A stretch of DNA of 64,000 nt from Amphiscolops sp. MND2022 (Eukaryota): NCBI GenBank assembly GCA_964187785.1, contig OZ076409.1, forward strand, positions 28,894,001 to 28,958,000, in the 5' to 3' direction. The first letter of the stretch is position 1. Each line of letters opens with the position of its first letter. This document shows positions 32,698 to 46,980 of this stretch, in pieces. The translations under genes were made by a program, and so were the position numbers. The notes beneath the pieces were generated by a model that had not been told where the DNA came from, searched no databases, and saw only the letters and a list, made by a program, of their open reading frames with translations.

Positions 32698-33048
32698 TGT
32701 CATGTGTTCCATGATAATCTTCTTTGACCGAAAACAGAAAACATCAAAGTTGAGAAGGAATATCTTGAATGCCTACCAATGACCTTTTATTTATATAAAT
32801 ATAAACATACAAGTTGAAACTATTTGACTTTGACATTTAAAACTATTTGACATTTATTGAATACTTCACCAACTGAGAAAAGTAATTTTATAATCATAAG
32901 AACGAATAATACAGATAAAGAACAGTTTAGTTTTCCTAACCAAAAAGTGGATTGCGTCCCAAGCATCTTAGACTACCGCTCGACATCTTCTGAGGAATCG
33001 TCTTGAGAGAAGTGACAAAATAGGACTCTGAAAATAAGAGTTATGACT
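32698..33048 (+). repeat. 5' LTR
   Basis: TGTCATGTG...GTTATGACT; no differences from 46630-46980 seen by eye. Confidence 0.97.
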
Positions 33049-33063
33049 TGGTGACAGGAGTAC
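33049..33063 (+). promoter_or_regulatory. Primer-binding site
   Basis: TGGTGACAGGAGT immediately after the LTR; close to the complement of a tRNA-Leu 3' end (TGGTGTCAGGAGT); tRNA identity is tentative. Confidence 0.75.
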
Positions 33064-33817
33064 AACAATCCACAAGAAAATGCTACATAGTACTAATCTT
33101 TTCTTCGTCGAAAGGGAAAACACAGGCCACGCCCAGACGACCACTGCTCAGTACCACATCCACGTCCACCTCCAGTTCCACCGATGATACAACTAAAACA
33201 ACAGTGGCCGGCAGTATCTTGCTAACTACAAACACTACAAATTGCGTTTTTTGCCTTTTCCTACAAGACGTTGTTTCAACTTCATTTTTTCATTCTACTG
33301 TCACGAGTGAAGACTTCAAGAAGGTGCGTTTGATGCTGATGTTTGACAACAAACAATGATGTATTCATTGGAACAACTTTTGGAATGGATGATGACTTGA
33401 ACATTCTCAGTGATGACTTCACAACTTTCAGTTCCAATGCGATTGGTGAGTTTAAAGCCAATTTTGATGTGGTAAATTGATAATGATGTTCTTTTAACGC
33501 CTCACTGTCTGATCAGACTGATTTCATTTTACAAAATAGCACATTTTCATTTTCAAAAATTACAAAATTTGGCAAGGTACTGAAACTGCCAGTTCATTCA
33601 TTTCTGTTTGAAGCATCTGAACTCCCTTTCTTCTTCTAACATATTATAATCGTTACAAGACTTTTGGAAATTTTCATTTGATTCTACTGTTCTGAGATTC
33701 AACTTTGAATTTTCCTTTTCTCGAAAATTTGTTTTTTTTTCTCCTTTTGAAGAAATCCTACTTTCTTAATCTAAACCTTAACATATTGTTTTCTCTTATT
33801 GTCACTTCACGTAAATT

Positions 33818-35104
33818 ATGGCTCAACCTCAACTAACTCTCACTCCTTATTCTGGTACGGAAAAAGAAAATTTTCGCGAATTCGAGCATTTGCTCAGAAG
33901 CATTCTTGCGGTCGCTGCGGTTCCAGCGAATCAACAGGCGAATTTTTTACAATTGCATCTTCGTGACGCAGCTCTACGTTATTTTCAAACTTTGCCCTTG
34001 GCAACCCGCCAAGATCTAGAACTTTCGATTGCTGCTTTACGAAATCATTTCTGTAATCCACAACTACAAGAAATTCACGTTTTGAAACTTGAAAATCTTA
34101 AATTTGATGCCAAAACAGACAATCCGGAAAACTTCTTAGTTACATTACAAACTAAAGCGTTTAAAGCGTATCCGGATCCGAATCCACCAGCAGTCGCACC
34201 AATTGATGCCGCAGCTCCCGACGCTGCTGTTGAACAAACACGCTTCGATCAGGACACTGCTCGACGTGCTGAACTAATACGATCCGCGCAAGAAGCTAGA
34301 GAACATCAAATCCGACGACAATTTATAAAAAACATGCCGGGATGGCTACGGGCAAAGCTCCTAGAACAGCCGGAAAACACAACAGTGGACGATTTATGTA
34401 TTTTCGCACGTAAACAATTGTCTATACATAATCTTTGCAAAACAGATGATTCTGTTATGGACGCCTTTAGTGAAATGGGTCCTTCAGTGACTGATACACT
34501 AGTAAATGCTTTAACAAAATTGAGTACAAGCCAAGAGGCAATGGACAGTCGATTAAATGAGATGTCCAAACAAATGGAAGAGCGTAATACTTCTTTTACG
34601 AATCAGTTGGAAGCCTTTACTAAAAACCAAAACGAACAGTCTCAGAGAGGCTCGTATTCCCAAAACCGTGGTCAAAATTCTAACTACCGAGGCAATCGCG
34701 GTAATTACAGAGGTCGCTACCGAGGAAATAACAGAGGCTATCGTGGACGTTCAAATTATCGTGGTAACCGGGGTAATTATTACCAAAATTCCTCATCACA
34801 GTATCAGTCGCCTCAAAATTTCAACAATAATTTCTCAAACACTCAGTTTGATACGAATTATAATCAGACGCAAACTTCGAATGCCCATTTTCAGAATCAA
34901 GGCCAACAAAATTCGAACTCTCAACAGCAAGCGACTTTTGAAGTATTCACTCCAGACTCTAACTATATGCCCTATACGCAGCAGTCCTCGATTACGTGCC
35001 ACAAATGTGGTTATCCAAATCATCTGGCACCAAATTGCACTTTGAAAGGGCCAGCTCCACGTCGAGGGACACAAAATCCTTTCAATCAGACTCCAAAAAA
35101 CTAA
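33818..35104 (+). CDS. gag: Gag (capsid-like domain, coiled coil, RG/N/Q-rich region, CCHC knuckle)
   Basis: 428 aa; PYSG...F..F, LHLRDAALRYF, CHKCGYPNHLAPNC. Confidence 0.95.
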   Translation: MAQPQLTLTPYSGTEKENFREFEHLLRSILAVAAVPANQQANFLQLHLRDAALRYFQTLPLATRQDLELSIAALRNHFCNPQLQEIHVLKLENLKFDAKTDNPENFLVTLQTKAFKAYPDPNPPAVAPIDAAAPDAAVEQTRFDQDTARRAELIRSAQEAREHQIRRQFIKNMPGWLRAKLLEQPENTTVDDLCIFARKQLSIHNLCKTDDSVMDAFSEMGPSVTDTLVNALTKLSTSQEAMDSRLNEMSKQMEERNTSFTNQLEAFTKNQNEQSQRGSYSQNRGQNSNYRGNRGNYRGRYRGNNRGYRGRSNYRGNRGNYYQNSSSQYQSPQNFNNNFSNTQFDTNYNQTQTSNAHFQNQGQQNSNSQQQATFEVFTPDSNYMPYTQQSSITCHKCGYPNHLAPNCTLKGPAPRRGTQNPFNQTPKN

Positions 35105-46293: not shown

Positions 46294-46617
46294 TTGACTT
46301 CACGAACTGAATTTATGAAATCTATCATCTCATAAAACACTTTGCTTTTATATTTCTCTTGCAGTATATGTAAATTTATATAGCAGTAATCTGGCTAATA
46401 AACACCAAAGAATTCAAAATAATATCACCGAAGACGAACAACAACTGGATTCTTCACTCTGGACAACTTTGGATCTTGTGCTGCCCCTCTTTTCATCCTA
46501 TTTTTATTTTGGATTCAATGCAAAACATTGGCATACTCAACTTTGGATTCTGTATTTCATACGACCTGACTCTTTCTTCAGACGAATGATGGTTTCTTTT
46601 GGAGGCCGGAAAAGCTT

Positions 46618-46629
46618 GATGGGAGGAAG
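46618..46629 (+). promoter_or_regulatory. Polypurine tract
   Basis: GATGGGAGGAAG directly before the 3' LTR. Confidence 0.85.
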
Positions 46630-46980
46630 TGTCATGTGTTCCATGATAATCTTCTTTGACCGAAAACAGAAAACATCAAAGTTGAGAAGGAATATCTTGA
46701 ATGCCTACCAATGACCTTTTATTTATATAAATATAAACATACAAGTTGAAACTATTTGACTTTGACATTTAAAACTATTTGACATTTATTGAATACTTCA
46801 CCAACTGAGAAAAGTAATTTTATAATCATAAGAACGAATAATACAGATAAAGAACAGTTTAGTTTTCCTAACCAAAAAGTGGATTGCGTCCCAAGCATCT
46901 TAGACTACCGCTCGACATCTTCTGAGGAATCGTCTTGAGAGAAGTGACAAAATAGGACTCTGAAAATAAGAGTTATGACT
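46630..46980 (+). repeat. 3' LTR
   Basis: Matches the 5' LTR; followed by TSD ATTGA. Confidence 0.97.

Follow-up and report, generated by a model that had tools for sequence, protein, structure and literature searches.

We describe a complete long terminal repeat (LTR) retroelement in the genome of Amphiscolops sp. MND2022 that carries, besides gag, pol and env, a macrodomain at the end of its Pol protein and, on the opposite strand, a predicted five-exon gene whose product very probably adopts the fold of OTU-type deubiquitinases. The window under study is a stretch of 64,000 nucleotides (assembly GCA_964187785.1, contig OZ076409.1, positions 28,894,001 to 28,958,000 of the forward strand), and the element occupies positions 32698-46980 of it, a length of 14.3 kb in which gag, pol and env are all open when open reading frames (ORFs) are called with the standard code (Table 1). 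The two LTRs lie in direct orientation and are identical at 351 of 351 positions, the repeat finder having returned the first 300 nt and alignment having carried the match onward to the last T, and the same five nucleotides, ATTGA, stand on both sides as a target-site duplication (TSD). Because the LTRs are identical and flanked by a TSD, all frames are open and near-identical copies exist in the genome, the element is recently inserted and structurally complete. An earlier note on this DNA, made from the letters alone, had described a young, intact element with identical LTRs, a TSD and open gag, pol and env, and in all of these points, coordinates included, it was right.

Table 1. Features of the element and its borders (positions are those of the window; a dot marks features without strand).
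Feature	Position	Strand	Basis
Left target-site duplication, ATTGA	32693..32697	.	Alignment of both LTR borders
5' LTR, 351 bp, TGTCAT...ATGACT	32698..33048	+	Identical to 3' LTR
Primer-binding-site-like stretch, starts TGG, abuts 5' LTR	33049..33066	+	Alignment reading
gag, 428 aa, C-X2-C-X4-H-X4-C zinc knuckle near C-terminus	33818..35104	+	ORF; Pfam zf-CCHC
Slippery heptamer A AAA AAC, directly before gag stop	35095..35101	+	Sequence and frames
pol, 1869 aa from first ATG; frame open from 34963	35005..40614	+	ORF, Pfam
TARG1/OARD1-like (ALC1-class) macrodomain, Pol C-terminus, ~130 residues	40210..40596	+	phmmer against PDB
pol-env spacer, 3324 nt	40615..43938	.	Between pol and env frames
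Predicted antisense five-exon gene, 336 aa	41097..42398	-	Exon/intron conservation, dN/dS, hhalign, fold
Predicted exon 1	42398-42091	-	In silico splicing
Predicted exon 2	41998-41733	-	In silico splicing
Predicted exon 3	41662-41496	-	In silico splicing
Predicted exon 4	41431-41238	-	In silico splicing
Predicted exon 5	41172-41097	-	In silico splicing
Sense 95-aa ORF	42658..42945	+	Conserved in related copies
Antisense 100-aa ORF: signal peptide, Cys-rich ectodomain, transmembrane helix, basic tail	43244..43546	-	
env, 784 aa: signal peptide, R-K-R-R (R144-R147), C-terminal transmembrane helix	43939..46293	+	ORF
Polypurine tract GGGAGGAAG, adjoins 3' LTR	46621..46629	+	Sequence reading
3' LTR, 351 bp	46630..46980	+	Repeat finder, alignment
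Right target-site duplication, ATTGA	46981..46985	.	Alignment of LTR borders

The macrodomain closes Pol, where it follows a low-complexity linker of about 300 residues rich in Pro, Ala and Ser. The last 184 residues of Pol match five human TARG1/OARD1 (C6orf130) sequences of the PDB with E values of 1.8e-18 to 2.2e-18 in a phmmer search, and the alignment, of about 125 residues, places query residues 51-179 on residues 24-147 of a 149-residue chain, that is, on nearly the whole domain. In this alignment 'lvtK' of Pol falls on 'litK' and 'GyD' on 'GlD', so that the Lys and Asp positions are kept; we take these to be Lys84 and residue 125, placed by our own count along the TARG1 sequence. The catalytic dyad of TARG1 consists of Lys84 and the acidic residue 125, and the enzyme acts on ADP-ribosylated proteins and nucleic-acid ends and interacts with PARP1 (PMC7050489). 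The element's domain thus resembles human TARG1/OARD1 in its minimal macrodomain size and its conserved catalytic Lys and acidic positions, and differs from it in being the C-terminal part of a retroelement Pol. By the method of Nei and Gojobori the ratio of nonsynonymous to synonymous divergence (dN/dS) of the macrodomain against diverged copies is 0.19-0.50. Across the genome a first look gave 1709 macrodomain candidates, and among the 150 that were scored many stand in frames of 1600-2300 aa, with identity down to about 30%; a Pol-macrodomain fusion, 53% identical, is also present in the public protein collection (P0184).

The antisense gene became visible when the minus strand of the pol-env spacer was aligned with six diverged copies (L006, L007, L009, L010, L011 and L012). 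The alignment falls into five conserved blocks, which we read as exons, and four intervening stretches of low conservation with GT..AG borders, which we read as introns of 92, 70, 64 and 65 nt. The exons are 70-78% identical and align without gaps to L007, L009, L010 and L011, with two gapped columns in exon 3 of L012, whereas the introns are 38-60% identical with 3-15 gapped columns. The GT..AG dinucleotides are kept at 21 of the 24 intron boundaries, the three exceptions falling in two copies that carry stops (L006 and L011) and at one donor shifted by an indel (L012). In silico splicing joins the blocks into an open frame of 336 aa, the acceptor of exon 5 having been chosen because it gives a frame and a stop that are conserved across the diverged copies. 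Against L007, L009, L010, L011 and L012 the exons have dN of 0.08-0.18 (Nei-Gojobori) and dN/dS of 0.03-0.11 in 11 of 20 exon-by-copy comparisons, dS being saturated in the other 9; in L006, which has stops and is decaying, the exon ratios are 0.19-0.62. All 46 loci examined for intron 1 have it, with 65-227 nt separating exons 1 and 2, and no stop-free read-through of it was found in these 46; nor was an intron-less copy found among 14 loci picked for long frames. Exon 4, nearly always a discrete block of 64 residues, was scored at 150 places among 255 candidates, where it is 39-100% identical and, by our count, stop-free in 136.

Since the macrodomain lies tail-to-tail with the antisense gene, on the opposite strand and within the same locus, in 40 of 46 loci that were chosen by exon 4 alone, the pairing of the Pol macrodomain with the antisense gene appears to be old. 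No annotated full-length protein was found for the antisense gene: a profile of exons 3-4 gave 76 matches in a representative protein library, and the 14 that were examined are unspliced exon-sized or read-through ORFs, with the exception of a weakly matching 950-aa repeat protein, while the remaining matches listed are mostly 47-156 aa long. A word-index protein search with exon 2 returned one read-through ORF from a sister copy.

The C-terminal half of the predicted antisense protein is a candidate OTU-fold domain with Cys177, His301 and Glu303. For a profile-profile comparison with hhalign, 30 distinct family members, their translated exons linked by an X where a codon is split, were set against nine OTU domains of the same genome that pass the Pfam cut-off. 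The comparison gave a Prob of 95.5% and an E value of 1.6e-8 over 107-130 columns, and 50 column shuffles reached at most 0.7%; an earlier, smaller run had given 95.0%, with 0.1% for the reversed control and at most 0.3% in 20 shuffles. GGGECWF of the antisense family falls on GDGNCLF of the OTU domains, and FHCEP on the OTU His motif (H[FY].P). Of 39 loci, 34 retain the catalytic Cys motif and 38 the His motif, the exceptions being two changes of Cys to Arg, one of His to Gln and three frameshifts that cut the exon-2 match short. The reference set included OTU domains of Pfam level that lie in open frames of 2244-2816 aa elsewhere in the genome (L029, L034, L035 and L039); these long frames presumably belong to other mobile elements.

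Structure prediction points the same way. An AlphaFold2 (AF2) model was built from a natural frame of a sister locus, comprising exon 3, an in-frame intron of 23 residues and exon 4, with natural fragments aligned in 40 rows as input; its pLDDT is 71 and its pTM 0.66. With this model, all 33 rows shown by Foldseek are OTU-type deubiquitinases (E 0.010-0.18, prob up to 0.99), among them a rice OTUB-like protein, OTUD1, nairovirus vOTUs, DUBA, OTUD3, A20, Cezanne and OTUB1. An independent search with VIA-align over 48,161 representative chains placed OTU structures in all of its top 14 positions (Z 6.2-4.7, root-mean-square deviation (rmsd) 3.3-4.8, 94-104 aligned residues), led by OTUD3 (Z 6.2, rmsd 3.9, 98 aligned), OTUD1 (6.1) and Otu2 (5.5), and the six chains with Z of at least 5 are all OTU. 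Taking the profile-profile, Foldseek and VIA-align results together, we hold an OTU fold for the antisense protein to be highly probable.

Two small ORFs complete what is conserved in the cassette. A search of 26 loci (L001-L026) recovered the sense ORF of 95 aa from 15 of them, as 12 distinct sequences; this ORF is open at 48-54% amino acid identity in L007, L009, L011 and L012 and absent from L010. The antisense ORF of 100 aa, a predicted small type-I membrane protein with four conserved Cys and a conserved NGT sequon, was found in 16 of the same 26 loci, as 14 distinct sequences, and is stop-free in six of six diverged copies. A protein atlas gave leads below the counting level for both: clusters like FtsQ/DivIB-C were nearest to the 95-aa protein (0.91, 151 shared features), and clusters of human cytomegalovirus (HCMV) US6 (0.86) and coronavirus ORF7a (0.83) to the 100-aa protein. 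A 138-aa frame at 43170-43586, which overlaps the 100-aa ORF, was rejected as a gene because it is not conserved, and several other small ORFs of the spacer are likewise not conserved. Two long A-runs stand on the plus strand inside the cassette, at 43081-43107 and 43586-43610, the first about 140 nt past the stop of the 95-aa ORF, a position that would fit capture of a polyadenylated mRNA.

The macrodomain, the antisense gene and both small ORFs are under purifying selection. The earlier note had pictured a 3.3-kb spacer packed with a macrodomain gene, an OTU protease gene and small ORFs, and had held that spacer ORFs decaying neutrally in related copies would speak against it. The related copies instead conserve them; the OTU gene lies in the spacer, on the minus strand and in five exons, and is backed by hhalign and the two fold searches, and two of the several small ORFs are conserved. 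The TARG1-like macrodomain is real as a domain and was misplaced as a gene, since it forms the C-terminus of Pol.

The third large frame of the element, env, had also been claimed in that note, and the claim proved sound, the protein being F-type-like. Its R-K-R-R site is followed by a Gly/Ala-rich stretch like a fusion peptide. It has 105 database relatives, and of 41 that were aligned and scanned (39-87% identical to the Env of the window) four match Baculo_F (PF12259), at best with E 3.6e-7; with a profile of the family, the R-K-R-R/Gly-rich region matches influenza HA2 weakly (E 0.018). Because of the Baculo_F matches of the relatives, the HA2-like match, the signal peptide and the transmembrane helix, Env fits an F-type, class-I-like fusogen. 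A first look at the genome gave 1185 env candidates, and most of the 57 scored are open.

Gag and Pol follow the Ty3/Gypsy plan. The zinc knuckle of Gag matches Pfam zf-CCHC with E 0.0096 at 16.4 bits, under the cut-off of 20.8. The pol frame lies at -1 relative to gag, and the overlap ends in the slippery heptamer; a -1 gag-pol frameshift is predicted from the frame and the heptamer only, and no strong RNA fold was found 3' of the site (z -0.8). Pol reads in the order protease, reverse transcriptase (RT), RNase H, integrase (IN) zinc finger, integrase core, Pro/Ala/Ser linker and macrodomain, with Pfam matches to RVT_1 (residues 509-674, E 5e-21), RT_RNaseH (739-871, E 1.4e-16), Integrase_H2C2 (1083-1140, E 7.2e-14) and rve (1161-1251, E 1.5e-11). 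The domain order of Ty3/Gypsy is thus present, its protease part, at residues 82-182, matching Pfam models below threshold (E 0.05-0.19). Between protease and RT, at residues of about 200-330 (35602-35994), lies a possible degenerate dUTPase-like domain, where Pfam dUTPase (E 0.058) and two PDB dUTPases (E 0.11 and 1.0) all match below threshold and in the same direction. The 12-nt pattern used to look for the primer tRNA occurs at 71 genomic sites, mostly the element's own primer-binding site, and four other sites that were tried have no tRNA gene; a search of Rfam over the whole element matched no family.

A search of the 1.07-Gb assembly with the spacer DNA returned 46 matches, of which five, the window's own included, cover all 3324 nt at 99-100% and others are at 70-80%. 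All five of the 99% copies have an open Env frame; the Pol frame extends over about 1883 aa in three of them and is shorter in the remaining two, and one copy carries a stop in the antisense gene. Forty LTR matches that were scored include about 16 pairs, 13.4-14.2 kb apart and 93-100% identical, on several chromosomes, and few solo LTRs. With the 1709 macrodomain and 1185 env candidates of the first look, the architecture is both old and abundant in this genome. In L007, L009 and L010 the 3' end of pol and the start of env are 91-100% identical to the window, whereas positions 40900-43500 between them are only 51-76% identical, and L006 has the reverse pattern of cassette and flank identity. 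Near-identical pol and env flanks around diverged cassettes, together with the reverse in L006, show that the accessory cassette has been exchanged between lineages by recombination; in L061, a macrodomain of 97% identity stands beside an exon 4 of 56%. The first 300 nt or so past the pol stop, 40615-40900, are 81-100% identical in copies whose cassette is at 51-76%, and may be a cis element or a recombination boundary.

The DNA around the element holds other mobile sequences and a host exon. Window positions 1-4932 carry a fragment of a different Gypsy-type pol (RVT_1, RNase H and Integrase_H2C2) with strong GC and AT skew, 14000-17000 on the minus strand the remains of a non-LTR retrotransposon, with Exo_endo_phos_2 and RVT_1 in separate frames, and 60117-61148, also on the minus strand, an open 344-aa Tc1/mariner-type transposase (HTH_Tnp_Tc3_2 and DDE_3). 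A host exon like ADP-dependent glucokinase (PF04587, E 3e-32) lies at 30217-31575 and ends about 1.1 kb upstream of the 5' LTR. A GC-rich island at 20000-23000 (45-50%, against about 38% around it) contains frames of 318 and 272 aa that match no Pfam family.

The env-carrying Ty3/Gypsy elements, namely Drosophila gypsy and the 'ancient errantiviruses' of non-insect animals from a 2026 eLife survey (PMC13524379), are among the closest known systems. According to that survey, F-type env elements are widespread across animals, and the element shares with them LTRs, gag, a pol of the order PR-RT-RNH-IN, a third ORF whose product is an F-type, class-I-like glycoprotein bearing a furin-type site, and many near-identical intact copies per genome; it differs in its length of 14.3 kb, its 3.3-kb pol-env cassette, the fusion of Pol with a macrodomain and its genes on the opposite strand. 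The words 'macro', 'OTU', 'antisense', 'accessory' and 'deubiquitin' do not occur in the main text of the survey (PMC13524379). Outside insects its filters, as given there, admit a POL-ENV gap of at most 1000 nt and regions of at most 10 kb, and elements like this one would be excluded because both their length and their gap exceed these limits. Extra conserved coding capacity has also been reported for LTR elements of bdelloid rotifers (PMC5408684) and for an orchid Gypsy element with an ALKB domain (PMC9289625); the ORF3 types of the bdelloid elements are env, DEDDy, GDSL, CC and TM, and 'macro', 'OTU' and 'ubiquitin' are not mentioned (PMC5408684). The earlier note knew of no described LTR element with this combination, and our literature search, outside which Repbase, GyDB and InterPro architectures lie, likewise found no paper describing an LTR retrotransposon with a macrodomain and an OTU domain. 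The family would thus be a variant of env-carrying Ty3/Gypsy elements that is apparently undescribed in the literature searched.

Two further comparisons concern the enzymes and the strand. Viral macrodomains and OTU proteases serve immune evasion. Like the RNA viruses with OTU proteases (nairovirus L, arterivirus nsp2) and those with macrodomains (coronavirus Mac1, alphavirus nsP3, hepatitis E virus (HEV)), the element would be a parasite equipped with erasers of ADP-ribose and of ubiquitin/ISG15-type marks, and nairovirus vOTUs are among the best fold matches of the OTU model in both Foldseek and VIA-align. Unlike in those viruses, where the enzymes reside in replicase polyproteins, here one is placed in Pol and the other in a separate, spliced antisense gene. 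Genes opposite gag-pol-env that are expressed from the provirus are known from human T-lymphotropic virus 1 (HTLV-1), as HBZ, and from plant Gypsy elements of the Tat lineage, and antisense introns can persist through reverse transcription; those genes encode regulators or proteins without known function, unlike the OTU-fold enzyme predicted here.

The reading of the whole that we consider somewhat probable is that the element is a complete, young member of a large and old lineage of env-carrying Ty3/Gypsy elements, errantivirus-like, with a 'complex' genome and enzymes in the roles set out below. The LTRs and TSD, the order of pol and the third ORF make the errantivirus-like placement probable. 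Anatomy, homologies, selection and recombination come from the comparisons above, and the roles of the enzymes are what we infer from them. The macrodomain would travel with RT and IN inside the particle and the pre-integration complex, and there would remove mono-ADP-ribose from proteins or nucleic-acid ends. The OTU protein would be made only from integrated DNA, by antisense transcription and splicing, and its introns would persist through retrotransposition, since they cannot be spliced out of the sense genomic RNA; the enzyme would strip ubiquitin, or a modifier like it, from proteins of the element or of the host. Both enzymes could in this way erase two marks that the host places on invaders, with the result that restriction is blunted or the element's proteins are stabilized, and the F-type Env would allow spread from cell to cell. 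An anti-defence role of the enzymes is a serious possibility that falls short of being probable. More tentative by a small measure is the broader proposal that an animal lineage of 'complex' endogenous retroviruses has independently assembled the counter-defence pair of positive-strand RNA viruses, with an ADP-ribose eraser packaged along with Pol, an antisense OTU protein made only by the provirus and a recombining cassette that holds two small proteins as well, one of them a type-I membrane glycoprotein of viral style.

Several results count against the favoured reading. The frameshift is predicted, as are the promoter and the splice junctions of the antisense gene, and the window's own Env has no Pfam match. 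The Pfam Macro model (PF01661) scored the macrodomain at 11.8 bits, against a cut-off of 22, with E 0.24; that model is a general one and does not define the ALC1-like class, so that we file the domain with TARG1 on the PDB match. Pfam OTU (PF02338) matches neither single exons nor natural read-through ORFs, the domain being split over three exons, and none of the 24 places listed in a six-frame genome scan with PF02338 belongs to the antisense-gene family; Pfam over all spacer ORFs, at E up to 10, gave nothing useful. Sequence and profile searches of the PDB with exon 2, exons 3-4 and exon 1 returned no OTU structure, the rows they gave, GDF5 and PTPRO among them, being chance matches. Scores in the fold searches are modest (Foldseek E of about 0.01, Z of about 6), the AF2 model is without the Cys helix, and only unspliced natural frames were folded. 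A first AF2 model, from a 196-aa read-through frame with the Cys motif and a damaged exon 4, was poor (pLDDT 61.9): Foldseek found nothing significant with it, returning only OTU chains at E 1.7-5.6, and VIA-align reached at best Z 3.6, with OTUD1 at Z 2.2 on a second look. In the antisense protein a Gly takes the place of the Asp that the classical D-G-N-C box has three residues ahead of the Cys, and the conserved Glu303 at His+2 (HCE) may stand in for that Asp as the third catalytic residue. Finally, an anti-defence function is one of several possible uses of such enzymes, and for the OTU domains of DNA transposons a role in transposition itself has been suggested (PMC2836005).

The explanation that fares best after the favoured one, rather unlikely as it seems to us, is that both enzymes serve the element's own replication, through the stability of Gag, Pol or IN, through nuclear import or through DNA-repair signalling at integration sites. 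As a covalent part of Pol, the macrodomain lies beside the integrase; the interaction of TARG1 with PARP1 and its action on nucleic-acid ends (PMC7050489) would suit such a site, and PARP and ubiquitin signalling are generally known to govern the repair of DNA breaks, an argument that has been made for the OTU and Ulp1 domains of transposons (PMC2836005). The sequence does not separate this explanation from an anti-defence role. What speaks against replication service is convergence, the pairing of macrodomain and deubiquitinase in RNA viruses being tied to evasion of innate immunity.

It is also conceivable, and we judge it improbable, that the genes of the cassette are passengers without service to the retroelement, either a fragment of another mobile element with a Ginger1- or Helitron-type OTU domain or a gene captured from the host. 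DNA transposons commonly carry OTU domains, other OTU genes stand in long frames elsewhere in this genome, and the cassette acts as a module of its own. In Ginger1 transposases a Gypsy-type integrase, zinc finger included, is joined to a C-terminal OTU domain, often with one to four introns, so that Ginger1 and the animal Helitrons resemble the present case as mobile elements that encode an OTU domain (PMC2836005). The N-terminal third of the antisense protein, ahead of its OTU domain, holds the motif H66-x5-H72-x35-C108-x2-C111, with the C pair across intron 1, whose H..H...C..C spacing is that of the integrase zinc finger; H66 and H72 are invariant in 22 sequences and the C..C is kept in exon 2. 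Homology to integrase N-termini is nevertheless unsupported, since hhalign against three of them gave a Prob of 3.2% and blastp and a PDB profile search found nothing. Unlike a Ginger1 transposase the protein, of only 336 aa, has no DDE core, neither rve nor DDE being matched in the antisense frames at E up to 10, and its gene sits inside an LTR element. Passenger status is further opposed by the position and orientation of the gene beside the Pol macrodomain, the same in 40 of the 46 sampled loci down to about 40-50% amino acid identity, by the low dN/dS of its exons, and by the 136 of 150 exon-4 copies that are open in a class of elements that shed useless cargo fast.

Least probable of all, by a slight step, is that the accessory proteins are catalytically dead modules that bind ADP-ribose or ubiquitin as readers or decoys, to which the unreached Pfam thresholds of both domains and the Gly in the OTU D-G-N-C box would lend themselves, and against which stand the conserved positions of the TARG1 catalytic Lys and Asp, the retention of the OTU Cys and His in 34 and 38 of 39 loci, and the Glu two residues past the His that could complete the triad.

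Env-carrying Gypsy elements are usually viewed as simple gag-pol-env genomes, and the family reported here shows a complex genome in a reverse-transcribing element outside the vertebrates, with bidirectional coding, predicted spliced antisense genes, enzymes as accessories and a cassette that can be swapped. The antisense introns would be a clean example of a retroelement that keeps an intron-containing gene, and families of this kind would escape surveys that set an upper limit on element length or on the distance between pol and env. In combination, a TARG1-type macrodomain and a probable OTU-fold protease point to ADP-ribosylation and ubiquitin-like tagging as pressures on retroelements. 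Should the broader counter-defence proposal be true, no LTR retroelement before this one would be known to reverse ADP-ribosylation as well as ubiquitin-type marks, and the family would serve as a natural means of discovering the PARP- and ubiquitin-based restriction pathways that it targets in invertebrates.

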